From Phycisphaerae bacterium (GTDB lineage: Bacteria; Planctomycetota; Phycisphaerae; Tepidisphaerales; Tepidisphaeraceae): a stretch of DNA of 36,759 bases. Location of the stretch: assembly GCA_041749155.1 (NCBI GenBank), contig JBGTBZ010000111.1, positions 1-36,759 on the forward strand, written 5' to 3'. Positions 1,504 to 25,676 of the stretch are shown here, piece by piece (positions within the stretch are counted from its first letter, which is position 1; every line of letters begins with the position of its first letter). A model generated the notes under the pieces. That model was not told where the DNA came from. It saw only the letters and a program-made list of their open reading frames with translations, and ran no database searches. Position numbers and translations under genes: made by a program.

Positions 1504-2690
1504 GGGATCTCATCTCCCCGGGTCAGGGCCTGAGCCTCCACGCCGTACGTGCAATGGTGTTCCTTGGCAACGTCTGCATAGAAGCCGCGCAGTTTTTTCC
1601 ATCTGACGACAGCCAGCGCGGCATTCAACGCGTTGAGCTCGGCAATCTGGATGTTCTGGCGGTACTCGTTCTGTTCACTTCGATCCGCAAACGACGCGCG
1701 AGCTCCGAGTCCCCCGGCTCGCCCAGGCATACTGGCGGTGACGCGAACAATTCCGCCCAGGCTGCCGTCGCTGGCGTACAGGCCCATCCCCGTGTCCACG
1801 TAAGGAACACCCCAGGCTTCGAGGGCACCGGCGATGAGCTTGCGCGACGGACCGTCATCGATGCAGATGAACACGAAGGTCATCGGCCGCAGTGATTCGA
1901 TGTTGTCGGCGTCGACGAGGTGCGGGTGCGGCACGACACGTCGGTGCATGTTCGAGTAAATCGCCGTAAGATAATCGGCCTTCTTCGGCTTGGCGCGCAG
2001 AACTTCAAGCGATGCCGCGCCCGGGGAGCGAAACGCGTTATGGGTCAGTTGCTCGTCGCCATCGAAGAGATGGATGTCCTGGACGGGTGTCTTGGCGACG
2101 AAGTCCAGCACGTACGAACCGGTCCCGCCAAGGCCTACGATCGCGACGCGCTCGCCAGCCAGCTTCGCGGCGATCGCCGCGATGTCAGCGCGGCTGGAGG
2201 CCGTATCGGCGTAGTGGAAAGGTGACGCACCCTCCTTGGCATCCGTCGCCGGCGGCGAGAATGATCGGGCCTTCACCGACGGATCAACCACCCGAGCCTG
2301 GCCCGTGAGAATCGCGCAATAGGTTGTGGCCTGATGGTAATAGTTGTCGTACCGTCCCGTTTCTTTCGGCTTCGCCGAGAATGAGTGCCGGGCGGGGAGT
2401 CCCGGCGCAAGCTCAGTGTCGCTGCTCGTGTGCCGGATCTTCTCGATCGGGGTGCCGTCGGCGTTGCAAGGGTAATCGCCATCAAAATGGGCGACGTGCG
2501 TGCTTGGGGCCGTGGTCTGGTCTCCGGCGAGGTCTAGCTTGAAGATAAGTGTGCCGCGCTTGACGGCGCGGCCGTCGCCCACGTAGGGCACGTCGCGGAC
2601 CACGAGGTATCCTGACTGGACCTCCACGTTGTACCCCTCGTCGCGAAGCCGCCGGAGGTCGTCGTTACGATCGATCAGTTTCTGTGACAA
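1500..2690 (-). CDS. ThiF/E1-like adenylyltransferase with an N-terminal E2-like domain
   Basis: Rossmann/ATP motifs VAIVGLGGTGSYVLDF and LFDGDEQLTHNAFRSPG are typical of E1/ThiF/MoeB. The N-terminal ~170 aa (LIDRNDDLRRLRDEGYNVEVQSGYLVVRDVPYV ... THVAHFDGDYPCNADGTPI) carry a His...Pro-Cys arrangement reminiscent of the E2 HPN...Cys site. I chose the TTG start at 2690 (MSQKLIDRND...). The ORF is open up to 2822, so the start is uncertain. Confidence 0.8.
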   Translation of the reverse strand: MSQKLIDRNDDLRRLRDEGYNVEVQSGYLVVRDVPYVGDGRAVKRGTLIFKLDLAGDQTTAPSTHVAHFDGDYPCNADGTPIEKIRHTSSDTELAPGLPARHSFSAKPKETGRYDNYYHQATTYCAILTGQARVVDPSVKARSFSPPATDAKEGASPFHYADTASSRADIAAIAAKLAGERVAIVGLGGTGSYVLDFVAKTPVQDIHLFDGDEQLTHNAFRSPGAASLEVLRAKPKKADYLTAIYSNMHRRVVPHPHLVDADNIESLRPMTFVFICIDDGPSRKLIAGALEAWGVPYVDTGMGLYASDGSLGGIVRVTASMPGRAGGLGARASFADRSEQNEYRQNIQIAELNALNAALAVVRWKKLRGFYADVAKEHHCTYGVEAQALTRGDEIP

Positions 2691-3399
2691 GAAACACCAT
2701 CCTGTTCTTGACGAGGACCGAGCCGCCAGCAACGAGCTCCCCCTCGCGGTTGGCCTTCGGGCCGCGGCTGTACATGACTGTGTAAAGGATGAACGGCTCC
2801 GTCCGCACTGGGTTGAAGGCAAGCGGAAGCACCTGCTCGAACGAAATGGTGCGCCCCCTCCACTCGCGCGGGCGCGCGTTCACGATGATCGTGACCTTGC
2901 GCTCGGTAGTCGGTCGCGTCAAGAACACGGGGCCGTCGGCGAAGCGCACGTTGTCATCGTCGTCGAGCAGCTCATCGAGCGGCGACTCGGAGTCGCGGAG
3001 CAAGTCCGTGTCGTCGTCTACCTCAAAAAGTGCGCGGAGGCTGGCGACGGTCTGATTGCTGCGGGTGACAATCTCCCAGCTGTCGTTGAGCACAAAGGCG
3101 AGCTTCGGGTCCGCATTCGATCGGACGATGTCCTGCTGAGCGCCGCCCGCTATGAGGCGGAACACGTTGCCCTCCGCGAGGTCGACGATCTCGGTCGCCT
3201 TGAAGCCGACATCGTGCCGGCTGTTGTAGTCGCGGACCAGCGTGGCGTTCGGGGGAGCAGATGCCTGGTACAGGATATCGGCAGCCGACAGGCGCTGTCG
3301 CGGCATGGGAACGAGCTTGTCGTCAACAACTGCTGCCCAACGCGGGCTGCCGCTGCCGCGATCCTGCTCAGAAGCACGTAACACGACTTGTTCTGCCAT
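2665..3399 (-). CDS. Multiubiquitin-type protein with about three tandem beta-grasp (Ubl) repeats
   Basis: Three repeats of similar length each end in a hydrophobic strand motif (NVFRLI / GPVFLTRP / NRMVFLVTETDRS), as in the 'multiubiquitin' family. The ATG at 3399 is preceded by AAGAGG. The long upstream part of the 2665..4203 ORF overlaps an opposite-strand gene and has no homology signal. Confidence 0.7.
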   Translation of the reverse strand: MAEQVVLRASEQDRGSGSPRWAAVVDDKLVPMPRQRLSAADILYQASAPPNATLVRDYNSRHDVGFKATEIVDLAEGNVFRLIAGGAQQDIVRSNADPKLAFVLNDSWEIVTRSNQTVASLRALFEVDDDTDLLRDSESPLDELLDDDDNVRFADGPVFLTRPTTERKVTIIVNARPREWRGRTISFEQVLPLAFNPVRTEPFILYTVMYSRGPKANREGELVAGGSVLVKNRMVFLVTETDRS

Positions 3400-3492
3400 G
3401 GTGACAACCTCTTGGTCCAATGACCCGTTTTGAAGACCCACCTGAACCGCGCCTGCCGCGTCGGCTTGCCACGCTGCTTGCCGTTCTCGCCA

Positions 3493-3511
3493 CGGTTCAT
3501 AAGATGAACCG
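3493..3511. promoter_or_regulatory. Perfect palindrome CGGTTCAT-AAG-ATGAACCG in the divergent intergenic region; candidate operator
   Basis: 8-bp perfect inverted arms with a 3-nt spacer, read directly. It lies between the multiubiquitin start (3399) and the sigma-like gene (3670). Confidence 0.35.
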
Positions 3512-3669
3512 ACTGTTGGCGGTCTCCGGCACAGAGCGCGGGCCGCTATGACCTCTTGCCGACCAGCACGAGCAGATCGCCACCTTCGTCCGATTTTTTT
3601 CTCCTTGCCGGCGAATTGAACTTCCAGAGTGGCATCAGGGGGTAGAGGCGGCGCCCTAGGGAAGGTACT

Positions 3670-4290
3670 TTGCAGGAGCTCCTTGACCTCAGCAGCGAAG
3701 CGCAAGAAACGCTCCTCAAACGGCTTACGCATCACGCTCTGTGCAAGATGCGACGCCTGACGTGGCGCGGCGCTTACGTTGCGCGCGGCGGATCGGTCCC
3801 CGGCGGGTACGAGCCGTATGACTTCGCCATCGACGCGATCAAAAAGGCGATGGATGGAACCAGGCCGTGGAACCGTGCGGAGTACAAGACGCTGGAGGGC
3901 TTTCTTCGCTCGATCATCAACAGCGACATCAGCCACCTGGTCGAATCCGTGGATAACTCCACTGGCCGGAGGCTGGGACCGCAGTCGGGCAAGGACGAGA
4001 CGGTCGGGGCGTACGTTGCTCCCAGCACTGAGCCGGACCCCTTGATCGTGCTGATCGACAAGGAATGGCAGGGTCGTTTCCACGAAGCCGCAATTAAGGA
4101 GCTGAAGGGAGAGGAGTTCCTGATCAAGCTGCTGGAATGCATGGAGGCCGAGATTACCGAGCCCCGAGAGATCGCCGAGCTGCTCGGGACGACCGTCGAT
4201 CAAGTGAACAATGAGAAGAAGAAACTACGCCGCAGGCTCAGCGAACTGCATACGCGCATAAAGCCAGCGGAGAAACGGACACGCTTATGA
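3670..4290 (+). CDS. Sigma-70/ECF-like protein (region 2-like and region 4 HTH)
   Basis: LEGFLRSIINSDISHLVES resembles sigma region 2. EPREIAELLGTTVDQVNNEKKKLRRRL is a typical region 4.2 HTH. The TTG at 3670 is only the first possible start, so the true start is uncertain. Confidence 0.55.
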   Translation: MQELLDLSSEAQETLLKRLTHHALCKMRRLTWRGAYVARGGSVPGGYEPYDFAIDAIKKAMDGTRPWNRAEYKTLEGFLRSIINSDISHLVESVDNSTGRRLGPQSGKDETVGAYVAPSTEPDPLIVLIDKEWQGRFHEAAIKELKGEEFLIKLLECMEAEITEPREIAELLGTTVDQVNNEKKKLRRRLSELHTRIKPAEKRTRL

Positions 4291-4724
4291 GCGATCTGCA
4301 AGTCCATAACAAAGAGGTGTGGGACCGGCTGTTTGACCTGCTCTACGCATGTGACGAATCCGTAACTGATTCCGAGGTAGACACCGACCTGCAGCACGCC
4401 GGGATCGACATGCGGCCGGCGTTCCGGCGCATGCACGAAATGATTGAGCAGGCGAAAGCTCGGCAACAGTTCGCAGATGCTCGCGACACACGGCAATTGA
4501 TGATGGATAGGCTCCGCGCCGTGGTTGGCCCGAAAGTCACCGACCTACGCAACGGCGTGCGCGAGTTCATCGACCGTGTGTTCAGCGGCCCTGAGCAGGT
4601 GGCGCACTACCATAAGTTGGAGAAGGCCGCGAGCGAGGAGGACTTGCAATCGCTTATGGACGACTTGACCAGGCTTGCCGAGTTGCGCAAGACGAAGGAC
4701 CAGGATGGGCCCAAAGCCGAATAG
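4287..4724 (+). CDS. Hypothetical acidic helical protein (candidate anti-sigma or adaptor)
   Basis: Its ATG overlaps the stop of the sigma-like gene (ATGA), and its 3' end overlaps the ImmA start. I recognise no motif. The protein is predicted helical and charged. Confidence 0.45.
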   Translation: MSDLQVHNKEVWDRLFDLLYACDESVTDSEVDTDLQHAGIDMRPAFRRMHEMIEQAKARQQFADARDTRQLMMDRLRAVVGPKVTDLRNGVREFIDRVFSGPEQVAHYHKLEKAASEEDLQSLMDDLTRLAELRKTKDQDGPKAE

Positions 4725-5490
4725 AATCCGGGCCGCTGCCGAGGCACTGAGGTTGTGGAAGCTCTACGGACTTGAGTCGCCGAGGGACCTGGTTCTTGAG
4801 GACTTGGCCATGGCGCGGGGCATCCTGGTGATGGACGGTAGGCTCGACTCCGCGGCGGCCCGGCTGGTGCGCAGCGGCGACATTGGAATTGCCAGGATCA
4901 GCGACCGTATCCGCGAGCCAGGTCGGCGGAAGTTCGCTATCGCGCACGAAATCGGCCATTGGGAACTGCACAAGAAACACTCGCATCTGCTGGCGTGCAC
5001 CGACGAGGACATGCTCGCCCGGTACGGCGCAAGCCCGCTGGAGACTGAGGCGAGCGTCTTCGCGGGTTCATTGCTGATGCCCGATTACCTGTTTGTTGAG
5101 CGCGTGGATGGGCGACGACCAACGCGGGCGGTGATTAACGACTTGTGCGACTACTTCGGCACCACATTCACTGCCACCGCGTTGCGTTACGTCGAGACGT
5201 CGAACGACTACTACGTCTTTGTGCTGGCTGAGAACAACCGCGTCCGCTGGTGGCGGGCGAGCGATTCGTTCGGCGAGCATAAGCTGTGGATCGACAACAA
5301 GACCGTGCTGCCTAGAGACAGCGCCGCCGCGTCCTTCTTCCGTGGCGAGTCCGTGCCACCTGACCCCCAGCCCATGGATCTCCGCGCCTGGCTCGGCAAC
5401 TTGCCTAGTATCGAATCGGACACAATCATCGAGCAGACCTTTCCCCTTCCTGCATACGGCCAAGTTGTTAGCATTTTGTGGTTGCCTTAG
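4705..5490 (+). CDS. ImmA/IrrE-family zinc metallopeptidase (DUF955) with a C-terminal domain
   Basis: The FAIAHEIGHWELH HExxH motif followed by ETEASVFAGSLLMP is the ImmA/IrrE signature. The ATG at 4705 (MGPKPNRIRAAAEAL) is in frame with the 4675 ORF. Confidence 0.85.
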   Translation: MGPKPNRIRAAAEALRLWKLYGLESPRDLVLEDLAMARGILVMDGRLDSAAARLVRSGDIGIARISDRIREPGRRKFAIAHEIGHWELHKKHSHLLACTDEDMLARYGASPLETEASVFAGSLLMPDYLFVERVDGRRPTRAVINDLCDYFGTTFTATALRYVETSNDYYVFVLAENNRVRWWRASDSFGEHKLWIDNKTVLPRDSAAASFFRGESVPPDPQPMDLRAWLGNLPSIESDTIIEQTFPLPAYGQVVSILWLP

Positions 5491-6785
5491 GGCTCAGCGG
5501 CGGATTGGCGGCGTGCCTCGTGAACGCCGACAGGTACTGTGCTGTGAGCACCACCTGTGCGTACCGGTTCCGTGGCGTCGATCGGATGGTGTTGTGGACT
5601 GGCTGAAGAGCCCCCCCATGCCGTTGCCAAGAGAGTGACAATAGCTCGGACGTTAGGAATTCCGGTCGAGGGGTCGCGCCCGATCGGTCGTGCTTTGACC
5701 TCATGCCAGAGCTGTTGTGCGCTAGCGGGCGCATCCTGATAGCGGACAAAGAACAGCGATTGATGCCGCTCATGCAGTGAACGCCAATCGGCTCGTTTCA
5801 ACCAGTCGGGCTTCGGGTCAGCGATGATGACGGCCGCCGACGCTGCCGCTGCAGCATCGAAGGCTTCGCGAGCTGTTCCTGGTGCCCACCGTGCTTTGGG
5901 TGGGGCGACGGACACCGCAACAAGTAACTTCGCCTGGACCAGATGCTCAACCCATTTGGGCAAGCGCTCGGACATGAGCCCTCGCGGAACCCAAGCTACA
6001 ACCTTTGTTCCCTGAGCAATCGCAGATTCGATCACCTCACGCGTTCGGTTGCCAGTCAGGATGAAAGCTAAGACGACTGAAGTTTGATGCGCGAGGGCTT
6101 CCGCCAGAGCCCGAACCACGACGGCCTCACGCTCAGCAGGCTTGAATGATGACACAAGCGCTACTGTCGCGAATCGAAGCAGTTCTGATGGTCCGTGATA
6201 GAACACCCGACGGGCATGTGTTTCGCGAAGGCCATCGGGATACAAAGGGTTATCGGGGTCCAACGCGCCCACATCAGCGCGTTCAAGTTCATCTGGGTCG
6301 ATCTGCTGGTCAGCCTCGGGGACCTTCGCCCCGATTGCGCGGGAATCCTTGGGCTCAAACACGCTGACTATCGCCGGAGTGTCGCTCAGGTAAGTTTGAA
6401 TCATCGCGGACACGCGGCCCCAATCCAGCCCACCGTGCCCGCAACCGAGAGCCGGCAATGCGACCGAAACCCCGACGTAATCCTTCAGGTATTCCCGAAG
6501 CGCTTCGAGACCCGCTTTAATGTCCTCGTATCGCGACTTGTCGCGCCAATGCCGCTTCGTGGGGAAGTTGATAACCCAGTCGCCGTGGAGGCGCTTCCAA
6601 ACGTGCAGCTTTCCCGGCTTGATACGGCCGGCTTCGCACTCGCGCTTATACTCGCGGAACATCTCGGGGTAGCGTTCCTTGAACGCGAGCGCAACCCCGG
6701 CCCCCATCACGCCTACGCAGTTGACGGTGTTCACGCGCGCGTCGAAGGCGCGACCGAACATGTCGCCTGAAGTGAACTCGATCAT
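5487..6785 (-). CDS. darG: DarG-like macrodomain fused to a DprA/SLOG-like Rossmann domain
   Basis: The N-terminus NTVNCVGVMGAGVALAFKERYPEMF ... WVINFPTKRHWRDKSRYEDIKAGL ... ALPALGCGHGGLDW is near-canonical DarG macrodomain. The C-terminal half (TVALVSSFKP ... VLAFILTGNRTREVIESAIAQGTKVVAWVPRGL ... LLVAVSVAPP ... AVIIAD) has the strand/helix pattern of DprA/SLOG folds. Confidence 0.8.
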   Translation of the reverse strand: MIEFTSGDMFGRAFDARVNTVNCVGVMGAGVALAFKERYPEMFREYKRECEAGRIKPGKLHVWKRLHGDWVINFPTKRHWRDKSRYEDIKAGLEALREYLKDYVGVSVALPALGCGHGGLDWGRVSAMIQTYLSDTPAIVSVFEPKDSRAIGAKVPEADQQIDPDELERADVGALDPDNPLYPDGLRETHARRVFYHGPSELLRFATVALVSSFKPAEREAVVVRALAEALAHQTSVVLAFILTGNRTREVIESAIAQGTKVVAWVPRGLMSERLPKWVEHLVQAKLLVAVSVAPPKARWAPGTAREAFDAAAAASAAVIIADPKPDWLKRADWRSLHERHQSLFFVRYQDAPASAQQLWHEVKARPIGRDPSTGIPNVRAIVTLLATAWGGSSASPQHHPIDATEPVRTGGAHSTVPVGVHEARRQSAAEP

Positions 6786-8197
6786 TCGTCGTCACCTGCT
6801 GCGCCGCCGGCGCGCTTGTCGAGTTCGGTTACCACCCACGATCGCAGCGCTGCGACCGCAGCCTCGTCCCACCAACCTGCATTCACCGCAGTCACATCCG
6901 CTTTTGCCAATGCTATCAGCATGTCCATGTCGCGTGAGTCGGTGACCACATCCAACAGTTGGTCCCGATCCCGACCCCGCCCAATGATGTCGCCGACGAG
7001 GTCGTGGTAGCAGACCAGCATGACCAGGACTCGCGCCGACCGCGGCCTCATTGTACCGACGTTGTCTCTGAGGTACTGAGCGACCGCCTCCGCCCCGGTG
7101 ACAGGGTGATCCAGATCAGCCTTTTGACGATACCCGTTGTCCTTCCACCGCTCCTTCGGCCCCTTCCCCACGTCGTGGAAGTACGCGGCGATCTCACACA
7201 ATAGCTTGTCGGTGTCGTTGAGCGCCCGATACTTCGCGACGGCGAGCAGGTGCTGCACGACGCGCTGCGTATGCTGACCCACGTCCTCCTTGTGCATGAC
7301 GTTGTCAGACTTCAGCCCGAAGAGTTCGCCCACGAGCGGGACGGACGCCGGATTGTCACGGAGGCGATCGCGAAGCCGAAAGAGATTCTTGAAGCGCGGT
7401 GCGGCGGCTTGGCCAATGTGATCGGCCAGGCCGCGGTAGCTTGCGTCGTAGCGCGCCAGGGTGAAACCGGGACCCGTAACGAGCGACTCATTGGGGGCCT
7501 GTGGGTATTTAGTCAAGTAGTGTCGCCCACTGAACTGGACGGTCGGAGCCGGCAACCCTGCTTCCCGATACCTCCGCAGAACTTGATCTCGGAAGTGGTC
7601 GTTCCAGACAATAATGTGGGAGATGCGGTCGACGGGCAGATGTCGGTGGATCAAGACCTCTGCCTGCCGCGCCTGCTTTTCTGCGTCCGAGGGCATGGAC
7701 CACTTCAGGCTGTCAATCGCTTGCCAGTTGAGCCTGGCGAGATCGGCGGGATCTGAATAGAACCTCGGAGGCGGATCGGTGTTAGCGGAGGCGGATGTGA
7801 ACACCACATCATCCCGCTCAACGATCTCGATCGGAACCGCGAAGTAGATCAATTCCTGTTGGTCGACATTCTTCGCCCGGACGACGGCCATGAGCATCGA
7901 CGAGCGCTTACAGAAGTAGAATGGCACGTAATCGTGGACGACCCCGCCCGGCGCGCAGGTCACGGGCATCGTGGACCGGCGATGCTGAATAGACTGCTCG
8001 GCGATCGACCGGTGCCGAATGCGCCGGTCCTGCTGCAAGTGGCAGCACAGGAGGCCGTGCTGCAGGACACTTGGCAGGTTCTCCAAATGGCAGAAATGGT
8101 AGGCGTAACGGCCCCGATATTGCGCTGGAACTGGCATCGGTAAACTGCTGTGGAATAAAGCCTTGCAGCGAACTACGCCGGGCTGCGGACTCCCCAT
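6782..8197 (-). CDS. darT: DarT (DUF4433) DNA ADP-ribosyltransferase fused to a C-terminal HD phosphohydrolase domain
   Basis: YHFCHLENLPSVLQHGLL, GGVVHDYVPFYFCKRSSML and QAEVLIHRHLPVDRISHIIV are DarT hallmarks, including the catalytic Glu context. The C-terminal half has H...HD...D motifs (HTQRVVQHL, AAYFHDVGKG, LDHPVTGAE, VCYHDLVGD, LAKADV). The stop overlaps the darG-like start (ATGA). Confidence 0.85.
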   Translation of the reverse strand: MGSPQPGVVRCKALFHSSLPMPVPAQYRGRYAYHFCHLENLPSVLQHGLLCCHLQQDRRIRHRSIAEQSIQHRRSTMPVTCAPGGVVHDYVPFYFCKRSSMLMAVVRAKNVDQQELIYFAVPIEIVERDDVVFTSASANTDPPPRFYSDPADLARLNWQAIDSLKWSMPSDAEKQARQAEVLIHRHLPVDRISHIIVWNDHFRDQVLRRYREAGLPAPTVQFSGRHYLTKYPQAPNESLVTGPGFTLARYDASYRGLADHIGQAAAPRFKNLFRLRDRLRDNPASVPLVGELFGLKSDNVMHKEDVGQHTQRVVQHLLAVAKYRALNDTDKLLCEIAAYFHDVGKGPKERWKDNGYRQKADLDHPVTGAEAVAQYLRDNVGTMRPRSARVLVMLVCYHDLVGDIIGRGRDRDQLLDVVTDSRDMDMLIALAKADVTAVNAGWWDEAAVAALRSWVVTELDKRAGGAAGDDE

Positions 8198-19037: not shown

Positions 19038-20042
19038 TCATGTCAATGCTCCCCCGCACGACGATCCGCTCCCCGCCGTGCAGCCGAAACAGTGCTCGCC
19101 CGTGGCGATCGCGCGGGTTCGCAGAGCTTCAATATCGAAGTTGTTGATATGGCGCGGCGCGGGACGATTGGTCGGCATCTTCAGCGCGTAGTTGAAATCA
19201 CAGTCGTGGAGCGTGCCGTCGTGGCTCACATGCACTTGGTGTCGGCACATCAGCGGCCCGATCGTCGCCGGATTGAACGCTTCCCGCAGCCGCTGCCGGT
19301 ACGCTTCGCCCTGTCCGTCGCGCTCGAGATCATGCTCAAAACGCCCAATCGGCATGTTCGTGATCGTCAGCAGACGCGTGAACCGGATGCCGAATTGCGC
19401 ATGCAGTTCCCTTCGATAGTCCGCCTCCAACTGCTTCTGGGGCGGCGGCAGCGACGGCCCCCCGGGGTTGTAAACAAGGTCCAACTCAAGATCGGGCTCT
19501 ACGCCGAAGCCCACCGCATTCAATCGCCGGATGACCTCGATGCTCCTTACGTACACGTGCCTGCCGCGCTGTTTGTCCACGTTCACTTCAAGATAGCAGG
19601 GCAGCGACGCGATCAGATGCACCCGGTGCGCGCGGAAGAACTCCGGCAGGTCCTCATACGCCGGCTCGAGCAGGATCGTCAGGTTGGTGCGAACGATGAT
19701 TTGGTGCCCTTGCCCGCGTGCATCGATGACGAACCGGCGGAAGTGCCTGTGCATCTCCGGCGCGCCGCCGGTGATATCGATGGTCGCGGCGCCGGCAGCC
19801 TGCGCCGCGTCGAGCACCATCAGCATCGTCTCCCAGGACATCTCCTCGCGGCGCTTCGGTCCGCTCTCGACGTGACAGTGATGACATGCCAAGTTGCACT
19901 TCAGGCCGATGTTCACCTGAATCGTTTCGAGATCTGCGGAGCGCAGCTCGGCCCCTGAGGCAGCTACCACCGCCTTTGAAAAAGCACGGCCATCCCGCTG
20001 GCCGGGTTGGACGCGCACGTGCAGTGAAAGTGATTGGCTCAT
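19038..20042 (-). CDS. arsS: Radical SAM/Cys-rich protein ArsS (arsenosugar-type)
   Basis: IGLKCNLACHHCHV (CxxxCxxC), ITGGAPEM, and the C-terminal HCFGCTAGSGSSCGGAL signature. The ATG at 20042 is preceded by GGAGG. Confidence 0.8.
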   Translation of the reverse strand: MSQSLSLHVRVQPGQRDGRAFSKAVVAASGAELRSADLETIQVNIGLKCNLACHHCHVESGPKRREEMSWETMLMVLDAAQAAGAATIDITGGAPEMHRHFRRFVIDARGQGHQIIVRTNLTILLEPAYEDLPEFFRAHRVHLIASLPCYLEVNVDKQRGRHVYVRSIEVIRRLNAVGFGVEPDLELDLVYNPGGPSLPPPQKQLEADYRRELHAQFGIRFTRLLTITNMPIGRFEHDLERDGQGEAYRQRLREAFNPATIGPLMCRHQVHVSHDGTLHDCDFNYALKMPTNRPAPRHINNFDIEALRTRAIATGEHCFGCTAGSGSSCGGALT

Positions 20043-20109
20043 CCCGGTAGACCTCCGCACCAAGCGAGGAGTTTAAGGGCATTTCCACAGGTCGACTATG
20101 CCAGCCGAC

Positions 20110-20139
20110 GGATGTGCGTCGCCTACACGGCACTATTCC
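20110..20139 (-). promoter_or_regulatory. Recurrent motif copy: GGAATAG-N15-GCACATCC, upstream of arsS
   Basis: The minus strand reads GGGAATAGTGCCGTGTAGGCGACGCACATCCGTCGG, about 65 nt upstream of the arsS ATG. Confidence 0.5.
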
Positions 20140-20185
20140 CGGTCGCGCTATTGGGCCAGACATATCGTTATCGGTGCCAGACTTG

Positions 20186-20215
20186 GGAATAACCGTCATT
20201 AAACGAGGCACACAC
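20186..20215 (+). promoter_or_regulatory. Recurrent motif copy: GGAATAA-N15-GCACACAC, upstream of ECF sigma 1
   Basis: The plus strand reads GGGAATAACCGTCATTAAACGAGGCACACACGTATC. It ends only about 7 nt before the GTG at 20222, which suggests a leaderless mRNA. Confidence 0.4.
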
Positions 20216-20221
20216 GTATCA

Positions 20222-20827
20222 GTGACTCAGCAGCAAGGCCAGTACGAGCAATGGGTCACGGAGCACTCAGAGCCGCTTTACCGTCTCGCCGCCCGGTTGT
20301 GCGGCAACGCCGATGCGGCCGAGGATCTCGTGCAGGAGACGTTTTATCACGCCTGGCGCTCGATGGCCTCTCTGCGCGAGCCTGATCGCGCCAGGGGATG
20401 GCTGTTTCGCATCCTGCGCCGTCGATATTCCCGATGGCTGCGCGACCAGACGCGGCGGCTCGATCGGATCGGCACGACTGATTCGGCATTTGTCGCGGAC
20501 AAAGCCGCGAGCGACGGGCAACCAGGCGCGGCGATGGAGCGCGAGGAGTTGCTTCAAAGGGCGCTGGAAGTGCTTGAGGAGAGGTATAAGCTGCCTCTGC
20601 TGCTCGTATTCCTTGTGGGCATGACATTCCAGGAGGCGGCCGACTCCCTTGACCTGCCGCTGGGAACGGTGCTCTCGCGGGTTCATCGGGCGCGCCAGCA
20701 GATCCGGCAGCAGTTCGATACCGAAAGGTCCGGCATTCGGCTCGTTGGGGATTCCGTCGCTGCCATGGCCCCCGCGGACGAAGCGCGGCACCCGCACGCG
20801 CGCCGGCAGACTGGAGGGATCGCATGA
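20222..20827 (+). CDS. ECF-type RNA polymerase sigma factor (sigma 1)
   Basis: AEDLVQETFYHAWRS (region 2) and MTFQEAADSLDLPLGTVLSRVHRARQQI (region 4). I chose the GTG start at 20222. The 20114 start would add a non-sigma leader that overlaps the promoter motif. Confidence 0.8.
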   Translation: MTQQQGQYEQWVTEHSEPLYRLAARLCGNADAAEDLVQETFYHAWRSMASLREPDRARGWLFRILRRRYSRWLRDQTRRLDRIGTTDSAFVADKAASDGQPGAAMEREELLQRALEVLEERYKLPLLLVFLVGMTFQEAADSLDLPLGTVLSRVHRARQQIRQQFDTERSGIRLVGDSVAAMAPADEARHPHARRQTGGIA

Positions 20828-21681
20828 ACTCACACATATCCAGCGAGGCATATCTTCAGGAGTTGCGCAATCGGATGGAGGAGGTGGCAGCCCTGCCTTC
20901 GAATCACCCCGACCGGCTCGCGATGCTGGAGCACATCAGCCGCATCGGCGGGTCGATCGAGGCTGAATGGCTGGCCTTGCTCCGCTTTGACGAGGAGTTG
21001 CGGATCCAGCTCAGCAGAGTGGTAGTCCCCTCCGGAATGCGGTCGCGACTGCTGGAGATTCCCAGACGCGCCAGCGGACATCGTCGCGTGCGACTTCTCG
21101 GGCCGTTTCTAGAGCTGCTGCTCGGTCCGCGACGCCTGGCGGTCGCCGCCTCCTTGGGCGTGATCGTTTTCCTGGCACTGGCCGTTGCCGCCTGGAAGAA
21201 TGACAATCTCCACGAGTTTGCGGCGCTGGCGGTGGCTGCCCACGCAAGCCAGCCGGAACTGGCATTGGTAACGGACGACTGGGAGCTTGTTCGAGCTTCA
21301 TATCGCGAGCAGATGCCGATCGACCCGCTCCGACCAAAGCCCCCCTCACACTGGACCCTGATTGGCGCGCGGTTGACCAACTTCGACGACCGGGCAGTAC
21401 TCTACAGCCGATGGACCGACGGCGATCGCACCTATTCGCTCAGCGTTTACTGCGCTGAACAGTTCCGACTGCCGCGGCAGTCGGAGCAGAGAGAACTGAT
21501 ACCGCGATTGCTTGGTGAGGAGTCGGGGCGCAGAGTGGTCTTCTGGTCTGACCGGCATTGCGACTATGTGCTGGTCGTGGATGACGCGACGGTGCCGGTG
21601 CATCGATTCGATGCGCAAGCGGAATCTGAGAGCGTGGTCGCATCGGTGTTCGTCGAGCCGAGGCATCTGCTTCCAATCTGA
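20824..21681 (+). CDS. Putative single-pass membrane anti-sigma factor
   Basis: ATGA overlap with sigma 1, and one TM segment (LAVAASLGVIVFLALAVAAW). The call rests on position only. Confidence 0.5.
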   Translation: MNSHISSEAYLQELRNRMEEVAALPSNHPDRLAMLEHISRIGGSIEAEWLALLRFDEELRIQLSRVVVPSGMRSRLLEIPRRASGHRRVRLLGPFLELLLGPRRLAVAASLGVIVFLALAVAAWKNDNLHEFAALAVAAHASQPELALVTDDWELVRASYREQMPIDPLRPKPPSHWTLIGARLTNFDDRAVLYSRWTDGDRTYSLSVYCAEQFRLPRQSEQRELIPRLLGEESGRRVVFWSDRHCDYVLVVDDATVPVHRFDAQAESESVVASVFVEPRHLLPI

Positions 21682-24245: not shown

Positions 24246-25676
24246 TCACTCGGCGCAGCACGACAGCTTCGCGGGGTCCTTGTACCGGGAGATCGCCACG
24301 ATCTTCAGCGCCTCGGCCATCGTGGGGTAGACGTGCAGCAGGTCGATGATGTCCTGCAGCCGAGCGCGGAACCGCATCGCCATCGCCGCTTCGTGAATGA
24401 CCTCGCCGGCGTTGTGGCCGACCATTGACACGCCCAGCACTTCGTTGGTGTGCGCATCGGCCACCATTTTGATGAGGCCGCGCGTGTCGCGGATCGCGCC
24501 CGCGCGCGGCACCAGCGACATCGGCACGGTGCTGCACCAGCACTCGTGGCCCGCCGCGGTGGCTTGCTCTTCCGTCATTCCAACCAGCGCCACTTGTGGA
24601 TCGGTGAAGATGACGCGCGGGATGACGCGGTGGTCCACGGCCCGAAGCTCGCCGCCGGCAACCGCATTGCGGGCGGCGATGCCGCCATGGCGGCCTCCGA
24701 CCGGTGTCGCCATCTGGCTGCCGTGCTGACGACCGATCACGTCGCCAGCGGCGAAAATGTGAGGCATGTTGGTTTGCAGGTGCTCGTTCACCTCGATTTC
24801 ACCATCCCCGTTCATCGCCACGCCGGAGCGCTCGATCGCGATATTGTCGGTGTTCGGACGCCGGCCGGTCGCGATCAGCAATCTCTCAGCCCGGTATTGG
24901 CGTTCCTTTGCGCCGACCGTCGCGGTCATCACCACCGCATCTTGTTCTTGCCGCACAGCACGGACCGTCGCTCTGGTGACAATCTGAATGCCCTCTTCGG
25001 CGAACACTTCGCCGATGCTGAGGCCCACTTCCGGCTCGTAGCCGTGGGCCAAGAGCTGCGTGTTGCGGTCGATGATCGTCACTTCGGTGCCGAAGCGGCT
25101 GAACATCTGCCCAAGTTCCAGCGCGATGTATCCGCCGCCAACGATGATGAGCGACTTGGGCAACTCGCGCAGTTCGAGCGGCTCATCGACGGTGAGCAGA
25201 TCGCTGGTGAGGTATGGCACGCGATCCAACCCTTCGATCTTGGGGATGACCGGGCGCGAGCCGGTGGCGATCAGCACCTTTTCGCCGCTCAGCCGCTTGC
25301 CGTTGACCTCAACCGTGTTGGAGTCCACGAACTCGACATGACCTTCTTGGATGCTGAACTGGCCGCCCACAAGGCTCTCATATTTCTTCTTGCGGTAGTC
25401 GTGAACGACTTGATCTTTCTGCGCGATGAGCGCGGCGAAATCGAGTGTGATTTCGCAAGGCGTCAGGCCGGGATAGCGGGGGTTGCGGGCGTCGTGGATG
25501 AGTTTGGCGGCTTCGATGAGATTTTTGGAAGGCAGACAGCCGCGATTAACGCAGGTGCCGCCGATCGGGCGCTCTTCGGTCATCGCGGCGGTCTTGCCCA
25601 ACTCCTGCGCGGCCAGGGCGGCGGCGAAGGCGGTGGAGCCGGAGCCGAGAATGAGAAGATCGAAGTTGTCAGTCAT
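24246..25676 (-). CDS. merA: Mercuric reductase MerA core (no NmerA domain)
   Basis: [12 protein letters not shown], the redox pair [13 protein letters not shown], and the diagnostic C-terminal Cys pair ...KLSCCAE. Confidence 0.8.

Follow-up and report, generated by a model that had tools for sequence, protein, structure and literature searches.

Organization of the locus

The 36,759-nt contig JBGTBZ010000111.1 of a Phycisphaerae bacterium (Planctomycetota, Tepidisphaeraceae; assembly GCA_041749155.1), referred to below as the window, carries on its plus strand three overlapping genes that we examined as a candidate controller of the defence operon next to them. They encode a divergent protein resembling sigma-70 factors of the extracytoplasmic function (ECF) type (P1, 3670–4290, 206 aa, TTG start), an acidic, all-helical protein of an unnamed family (P2, 4287–4724, 145 aa) and a metallopeptidase of the M78 (ImmA/IrrE) family of CapP type that carries a cysteine switch (P3, 4705–5490, 261 aa, ATG start). 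A preceding description of this DNA, made by inspection of the letters and their open reading frames (ORFs) and called here the sequence-only reading, had placed three overlapping genes divergently from a ubiquitin-like cassette. All its coordinates hold, as do the ATGA overlap of P1 and P2 (4287–4290) and the 20-nt overlap of P2 and P3 (4705–4724).

The TTG start of P1 is supported by the conservation of its first 26 residues among homologues that begin at the same alignment column and by a Shine–Dalgarno sequence, AGGGAAGG, at 3658–3665 (plus strand), which is conserved in related loci. The public gene call (P0001, 180 aa, 3748–4290) starts at an internal ATG, loses these 26 conserved residues and was rejected. 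The same applies to a mechanically derived 512-aa ORF on the minus strand (2665–4203) that runs antisense through P1; it is a spurious upstream extension of bubA, whose start really lies at 3399.

The facing operon consists of three genes on the minus strand. The first, bubA (2665–3399), encodes a multi-ubiquitin-like protein (Pfam Multi_ubiq, E 7e-18); bubBD (1500–2822) encodes a fusion of an E2-like domain (DUF6791, E 1.7e-53) with a ThiF-type E1 domain (E 9.5e-12); and bubE (1063–1503) encodes a DUF6527 protein (Pfam, E 2.5e-22), a family whose serine protease function has been published (PMC11601596). The BubBD reading frame also matches NCBIfam PRK06153 (E 1e-154) in an alignment that begins at residue 45, and the real start of this gene probably lies ∼44 codons within the ORF. 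Multi_ubiq, DUF6791 plus ThiF, and DUF6527, without a JAB peptidase, correspond to the described Type II Bub (6E.2) architecture of BubA, BubBD (an E2–E1 fusion) and BubE (PMC11601596); judged by its domain content, the cassette facing the trio is a Type II Bub operon.

P3 is a CapP-type peptidase

The assignment of P3 to the ImmA/IrrE metallopeptidases can be made more precise, as its profile matches identify it as a true CapP-type enzyme. It matches the PADLOC capP profile with an E-value of 2.3e-50 over profile positions 15–241 of 242, a coverage that corresponds to the full-length peptidase–linker–GAF-like architecture of CapP, and it also matches Pfam Peptidase_M78 (E 2.6e-10) and the solved structure of Thauera CapP (PDB 7T5T; E 3.1e-13). 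The zinc motif HEIGH occupies residues 81–85, and in the alignment with 7T5T the Glu of ETEASVFA falls in the ligand region. The cysteine switch of Thauera CapP, C113, is located 13 residues beyond the second His and is found in a third of CapPs; Cys98 of P3 has the same spacing (His85 + 13) and is aligned with the cysteine of 7T5T. Single-stranded DNA (ssDNA) activates the CapP proteins of Escherichia coli and Thauera (Lau et al., 2022), and by homology ssDNA arising from DNA damage would be the expected trigger of P3.

P1 is a very divergent relative of ECF sigma factors

Searches of Pfam, PADLOC and PDB sequences with P1 alone or with a narrow family profile returned nothing meaningful. Against NCBIfam, P1 matched the sigma70-ECF model TIGR02937 over nearly the whole profile (19.9 bits, E 4.4e-4; the curated cutoff is 42.9 bits). 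Each of the 10 remote relatives that were tested matched this model over nearly its full length as well, with E-values from 1.9e-8 to 4e-3, the best score (34.1 bits, E 1.9e-8) still being under the cutoff. Remote relatives also match SigH-type region 4 models, and some of them carry sigma-70 or sigma-24 names in public sources; Pfam Sigma70_r2 was matched by a single member of the family (E 1.2e-3). With a wider P1 family profile, the best PDB sequence matches were sigma-H and a SigH/SigE chimera.

The AlphaFold2 (AF2) model of P1 consists of two helical domains, with a mean local confidence (pLDDT) of 77.5. Its best PDB matches in Foldseek are nearly all ECF sigma factors (SigH, SigL, AlgU and RpoE) aligned over ∼200 columns, and region 4 of sigmaE (2h27) is matched with a probability of 0.96, a TMt of 0.67 and a root mean square deviation of 3.2. 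The alignments of P1 are colinear with sigma regions 2.1–2.4 and 4.2; the helix-turn-helix (HTH) of region 4 is seen at the level of fold and remote profiles only. As four independent weak lines of evidence agree (remote relatives, AF2 model with Foldseek, wider profile and colinear alignments), we place P1, by predicted fold and remote homology, among the very divergent members of the sigma-70/ECF superfamily, with a putative sigma function. The suggestion of the sequence-only reading that this protein is sigma-70-like is upheld at that level, that is, by remote profiles and predicted fold.

P2 belongs to a widespread family without a name

P2 found no match in Pfam, PADLOC, NCBIfam, PHROGs or the PDB sequence search. 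An exhaustive profile search gathered a family of 362 representative clusters (counted at 50% identity), nearly all of them 140–155 aa in length, and the cluster look-ups for remote relatives yielded no annotations. In 117 representatives of the family, conservation falls on L62, A65, R69 and a C-terminal helix with the pattern D119-L-x-S-L-L-x-D-L-x2-L130. The stretch A-F|R-R at residues 45–48, considered as a mimic of the F82|R83 cleavage site of CapH, was discarded, F46 and R47 being unconserved in the same set.

This protein had been described as acidic and helical and as a possible anti-sigma factor. The first two attributes stand: P2 has a pI of 5.14, with 30 Asp and Glu residues versus 22 Lys and Arg, and its AF2 model is all-helical although not compact (pLDDT 73.5, pTM 0.38). 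The third found no corroboration from known domains. Foldseek with this low-confidence model retrieved generic three-helix bundles only and no HTH, CapH, anti-sigma domain or CalpT. Resemblance to the class I/II anti-sigma domain (ASD), FlgM, NepR or CalpT-like proteins was likewise absent, in what is a weak test given the pTM of the model. The N-terminal XRE-type HTH of CapH was found in P2 neither by the four profile libraries (Pfam, PADLOC, NCBIfam and PHROGs) nor by Foldseek, in agreement with the earlier statement that the partner of the peptidase is not an XRE-type protein. Since neither profiles nor fold give an HTH or CapH match, P2 is not a CapH.

The P2 gene does lie directly upstream of capP, as capH would, and directly downstream of P1, to which it is coupled by the ATGA overlap. 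A sigma gene that is translationally coupled to the next gene is the usual layout of a sigma/anti-sigma pair. We infer from this position, from the translational coupling to P1, from the overlap with capP and from one possibly artefactual, in-frame P1–P2 fusion (P0185, 339 aa) that P2 may be both an anti-sigma factor and the substrate of CapP. Two other proteins, P0214 (581 aa) and P0291 (459 aa), contain only the first ∼60 residues of P2, joined to unrelated regions, which hints that the N-terminus of P2 may be a separable module.

The trio is conserved next to diverse defence cassettes

The sequence-only reading had left it to a survey whether the trio accompanies defence cassettes elsewhere or resides mostly in prophage lysogeny modules. 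Genome and metagenome scans with contig look-ups produced ∼40 loci (designated by L numbers), ∼30 of which were long enough to judge gene order. In every one of these, the order P1-like protein, P2-like protein, M78 peptidase is kept, from 83% down to ∼26–31% identity, and P2, strictly co-inherited, always lies between P1 and CapP; the identical gene order in every locus long enough shows that the arrangement is not due to chance. The loci come from Planctomycetota, Acidobacteriota and Desulfobacterota-type metagenome-assembled genomes.

There is always a defence cassette directly divergent from P1 and its kind varies. Besides the Type II Bub cassette of the window, the trio faces a type III CBASS cassette (CD-NTase, HORMA, TRIP13 and NucC) in L001 and L012, a Pycsar cassette in L002, a Type I Bub cassette in L004–L008, L015–L017, L032 and L035, and once, in L037, a Type I Bub cassette led by a lamin-tail-domain (LTD) protein, a DUF2188 cassette in L033 and a Lipase_3 cassette in L039. 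No relatives of the trio were found in 50,697 phage genomes or in the IMG/VR viral contigs, and no relatives of P2 in plasmids. The varied defence neighbours, together with the lack of relatives in the phage genomes and viral contigs searched, rule out a prophage lysogeny module and mark the trio out as a portable unit for control of its neighbour, whichever cassette that is.

Several of these loci deserve separate mention. An LTD protein is encoded by the first cassette gene facing the trio in L037 (6290–6799), L010, L011 and L021; in L037 a small ORF separates the LTD gene from the Type I Bub set, a variant outside the two-type description quoted from PMC11601596. The cassette of L039/L040 (3905–6533) comprises a 77-aa ORF and genes for a 413-aa Lipase_3 protein and for a protein of 285 aa without a known family; as AbiE and an MmeI-type restriction system share its island, it is a candidate for an uncharacterised defence system. 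In L038 (7001–8822) the trio is decayed, with P2 cut to 94 aa and the peptidase split into ORFs of 154 aa and 107 aa; both promoter motifs (see below) are intact there, at 22 bits each, and the locus adjoins conjugation genes (TraG-like).

A pair of divergent promoter motifs separates the trio from the cassette

Alignment of the regions upstream of P1 revealed two divergent copies of a bipartite motif with the consensus YGGCRAWT-N8-CT-N-R-N-CGGCAW-N-ARG (core YGGCRA-N15-CGGCAW). This pair of motifs between trio and cassette is newly found here. In the window, the right-facing, promoter-like copy P_R (CGGCGA-N15-TGGCAT, 3609–3635, plus strand) ends 34 nt upstream of the P1 start codon, and an equivalent site is present in ∼22 loci as well as in held-out loci. 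The left-facing copy P_L (TGGCGA-N15-CGGCAA, 3556–3582, minus strand) points towards the Bub operon. Scanning with a position weight matrix (PWM) ranks P_L first (27.1 bits) and P_R second (24.3 bits) in the whole window, the third-best site scoring 16 bits. Loci L037–L040 had been left out of PWM building; in L037, L038 and L039/L040 (∼14.6 kb), the two best matches are again a divergent pair upstream of P1 (19–33 bits), and the third-best match scores at most 10.7 bits.

The internal spacer of the motif is 15 nt in 38 of 38 instances, and positions that the seed pattern had left free are conserved as well. The gap between the two copies is 16–28 nt across loci and 236 nt in L015. As the spacer is fixed, the gap is variable and the L015 units stay with their own genes, each bipartite unit, and not the inverted pair, appears to be the functional element. 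The L015 region (3716–4005), with its units ∼236 bp apart and each beside its own gene, is in this respect a natural experiment for the independence of the units. Both units of L019 and the left-facing one of L020 carry CAGCA in place of CGGCA as the −10-like element; a G to A change thus seems to be tolerated there, and the distant clades L027, L032, L033 and L035 have CGGCTT on the cassette side.

A loose form of the motif has five matches in the window versus 0.63 expected, three of them intergenic and within 170 bp. The loose match at 3466–3491, considered as a third site, lies outside the top scores of the extended PWM and was set aside as a chance match, and those at 20098–20123 and 24988–25013 were judged likewise.

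A cognate promoter preceding their own operon is a hallmark of ECF sigma factors. The trio has such a bipartite motif before its own operon, and a predicted promoter there, at the level of motif evidence. A motif of fixed geometry before the sigma operon, with a copy directed at the target, fits the prediction of a dedicated, autoregulated ECF-type sigma factor.

A weak candidate for a housekeeping-type promoter, TTGCCG-N16-TAAGAT, lies at 3478–3505 (plus strand), directed towards the trio. The pattern TTGNNN-N16–18-TANNNT occurs at −170 to −215 from P1 on the plus strand in 14 of 26 loci and on the minus strand in none of them; a scan for consensus sigma-70 promoters gave no site in 3300–5700, and the evidence for the element is comparative. 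It could provide basal expression of the trio. The putative −10 element is overlapped by a perfect palindrome read from the sequence, GGTTCATAAGATGAACC (3494–3510), in the region of the bubA 5′ leader; the corresponding sequence is only partly palindromic in L001, L010 and L011. Rfam finds no RNA family anywhere in the window.

A model of the trio and its alternatives

We view the trio as a self-contained controller of the adjacent defence operon, a variant of CapH/CapP in which CapH has been replaced by the divergent ECF-like sigma P1 and the helical protein P2; in our estimation, the chance that this is correct is marginally better than even. Direct support for it comes from the CapP identity of P3, the sigma-likeness of P1, the invariant gene order, the variety of defence cassettes and the conserved promoter pair. 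For the binding of P1 to core RNA polymerase, the interaction of P1 with P2, the cleavage of P2 by CapP and the ssDNA trigger, which are inferred steps, the guide is analogy with related systems.

In the proposed sequence of events, the three translationally coupled genes would have a low basal expression, for which the housekeeping-type promoter at 3478–3505 may be responsible. P2 would bind P1 and keep it off RNA polymerase, and CapP would be held inactive by its own cysteine switch. Single-stranded DNA produced by DNA damage or phage replication would activate CapP, which would cut P2 and so free P1. Freed P1 would guide RNA polymerase to both copies of YGGCRA-N15-CGGCAW: P_L would switch on bubA, bubBD and bubE, and P_R would switch on the trio itself, giving positive feedback along with a new supply of P2 for shutting the response off. 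Cleavage of P2 by ssDNA-activated CapP seems the most likely way in which the sigma factor would be freed. A broader form of the model is that P2 founds a new, widespread family of anti-sigma factors, located in the cytoplasm and serving solely to be destroyed by a CapP that senses ssDNA, that P1 founds a new ECF-like group dedicated to GGCGA-N15/16-CGGCA promoters, and that the trio is a plug-in unit of positive control captured repeatedly by mobile defence cassettes (Bub, CBASS, Pycsar, DUF2188 and lipase systems); this we offer tentatively, as a real possibility that falls somewhat short of an even chance.

Several observations weigh against the model. P1 reaches no curated sigma cutoff and its Pfam scan is empty; its Foldseek E-values are weak (≥ 0.02) and its whole-chain TM-scores low, although this is expected for a two-domain protein; and an hhalign comparison of its family profile with the canonical ECF sigma factor encoded elsewhere in the window (20114–20827) yields a colinear alignment without significance (E 0.048). 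In profile and fold searches P2 resembles no known anti-sigma domain, nor CalpT or CapH, and the P1–P2 fusion, a singleton from a 2.5-kb contig, could be artefactual. Finally, the two halves of the motif are alike (GGCGA and GGCAT) and could be direct-repeat sites for a DNA-binding protein other than a sigma factor.

The last point leads to the main alternative, in which P1 is sigma-like in fold but works as an ordinary DNA-binding repressor or activator on four GGCRW half-sites, and CapP cleaves P1 either directly or with P2 as an adaptor. This would amount to the derepression logic of CapH/CapP with a different DNA binder, and we regard it as unlikely. The similar halves (GGCGA and GGCAW) begin at a distance of 21 bp, or two helical turns, P1 lies under every sigma cutoff, and the nearby housekeeping-type promoter candidate could be the promoter under regulation. 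However, the P1 family aligns to the entire ECF profile, with region 2 as well as the HTH of region 4, and a fixed internal spacer with 16–236 nt between units fits independent promoters better than a single operator. Moreover, the right-facing unit is always at promoter distance from the P1 start codon, and a DNA-binding role for P1 would leave P2 without a role.

A different division of labour, to which we give a still smaller chance, accepts P1 as a sigma factor but makes P2 an inhibitor or adaptor of CapP, a sigma chaperone or a co-activator, with CapP acting elsewhere, for instance by trimming P1 or a host protein. No anti-sigma fold is recognisable in P2, and the fusion of its first 60 residues to unrelated proteins (P0214 and P0291) may point to a generic interaction module. 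On the other hand, the gene of the substrate adjoins that of the protease in ImmR/ImmA, DdrO/IrrE and CapH/CapP, here P2 overlaps CapP by 20 nt, and P2 is strictly co-inherited between P1 and CapP. It is very improbable that the trio works autonomously, as a stress or mobile-element module (a lysogeny-type switch of a prophage or of an integrative and conjugative element, ICE, or a toxin–antitoxin-like unit) that merely resides in defence islands: ImmA/ImmR-type pairs do control prophages and ICEs, and the loci do occur in defence islands and mobile contexts such as that of the TraG neighbour in L038, but the phage genomes, viral contigs and (for P2) plasmids hold no relatives, the cassette is always directly divergent from P1 with a second copy of the trio motif aimed at it, and no integrase or repressor travels with the trio.

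Comparison with known systems

The controller model, with P1 as a sigma factor released by CapP, has its closest relative in CapH+CapP, described as a ‘controller of adjacent pathways’ (Lau et al., 2022) and known beside CBASS, DUF2188 and 6E/Bub operons; 168 of 544 Bub operons carry CapH+CapP. The two systems share the kind of peptidase, including the cysteine switch, as shown by the matches to PADLOC capP and to Thauera CapP; the placement divergent from a defence operon, with the gene of the candidate substrate directly upstream of capP; and the association with CBASS, Pycsar, DUF2188 and 6E/Bub cassettes. They differ in that CapH is an XRE-type HTH repressor, whereas here two genes precede capP, whose products are the sigma-like P1 and the helical P2, which lacks an HTH, and in that CapH/CapP works by derepression, whereas the trio is predicted to work by sigma-driven activation from a dedicated promoter. 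Lau et al. (2022) list 24 CBASS loci with ‘Sigma-70 present’ beside capH/capP, which were recorded there but not studied; judging by the consecutive numbering of its genes, Bradyrhizobium sp. WSM1417, the first entry in their table, would have them arranged as cyclase, sigma, ‘capH’, capP. We found no literature following up these sigma-70 entries, and the Bub regulator dataset contains no mention of sigma.

Two CRISPR-associated systems follow the same logic. In CalpL/CalpT/CalpS of type III CRISPR, infection activates a defence protease, and cleavage of an anti-sigma factor by this protease sets an ECF-like sigma factor free. The protease there is a Lon–SAVED protein and the signal cA4, in contrast to an M78/GAF protease and presumably ssDNA here; P2 gave no fold match to a PDB entry, CalpT included, and the regulon of CalpS is not an adjacent defence cassette. 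The type III-E Craspase with Csx30, Csx31 and an RpoE-like sigma factor is similar in that recognition of a target activates a protease, which then cuts a protein that binds an ECF-type sigma factor and holds it back, but this protease is RNA-guided and caspase-like, the context is CRISPR and the components are unrelated to the trio.

In the classical pairs RseA–sigmaE and RsiW–sigmaW, the sigma factor is released through proteolytic destruction of its partner. The trio would resemble them in the co-transcription of sigma factor and partner, in the predicted autoregulated promoter before the sigma operon and in the proposed proteolytic release. The classical anti-sigma factors reside in the membrane and are substrates of site-1 and site-2 proteases whose genes lie elsewhere, whereas the parts of the trio are predicted to be cytoplasmic and the protease is encoded in the operon. 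DdrO/IrrE of Deinococcus and ImmR/ImmA of ICEBs1 and prophages likewise rely on an M78 peptidase that, upon DNA damage, cuts a neighbouring regulator. In these pairs the regulator is an XRE HTH repressor, and a sigma factor plays no part.

The claim of the sequence-only reading that this would be an unusual regulatory logic was thus overstated in view of CalpL/CalpT/CalpS, of Craspase/Csx30 and of the 24 CBASS loci with a sigma-70 entry. The logic of the trio is not a new principle, as circuits of protease, anti-sigma factor and sigma factor are known in CRISPR defence.

Other features of the window

A DarT/DarG-like pair on the minus strand (5487–8197) is convergent with capP, and the stop codons of capP and the macro domain gene overlap (5487–5490). 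Both proteins are unusually fused: DarT (E 2e-45) has a C-terminal HD domain, and the DarG-type macro domain (PADLOC DarG, E 3e-62) a C-terminal extension of ∼280 aa that is weakly PsyrA/DprA-like. This pair is not conserved beside the trio elsewhere. The window also encodes a canonical ECF sigma factor (20114–20827, plus strand; Sigma70_r2 E 1e-16, r4_2 E 8e-12), followed by an overlapping 285-aa ORF without a known family (region 20114–21681, plus strand) that is probably its anti-sigma factor. The loose match to the trio motif at 20098–20123 lies at the 5′ end of this sigma gene and faces a radical-SAM/DUF3641 gene (19038–20063); it scores low with the full matrix and is probably due to chance.

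Significance

How immune operons that can harm their own host are kept silent until needed is an active question. The known families of adjacent controllers are CapW/BrxR, CapH+CapP and CapK+CapS, and their modes of action comprise cleavage or release of a repressor (CapH/CapP and CapW) and its phosphorylation (CapK/CapS); to our knowledge, all three families act through repressors. If the model is true, the trio would represent a third mode of ‘Cap’ regulation, in which a controller acts by releasing a dedicated sigma factor, so that the operon is activated where the known families derepress. Further gains would be a defined promoter motif, a potential new family of anti-sigma factors and an orthogonal pair of sigma factor and promoter. 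The ‘Sigma-70 present’ label that Lau et al. (2022) gave to CBASS loci, so far without explanation, may also be accounted for by the trio. As it occurs beside at least six kinds of cassette, the trio could also serve in practice to flag defence systems that lack annotation, the Lipase_3 and LTD-led cassettes being examples.

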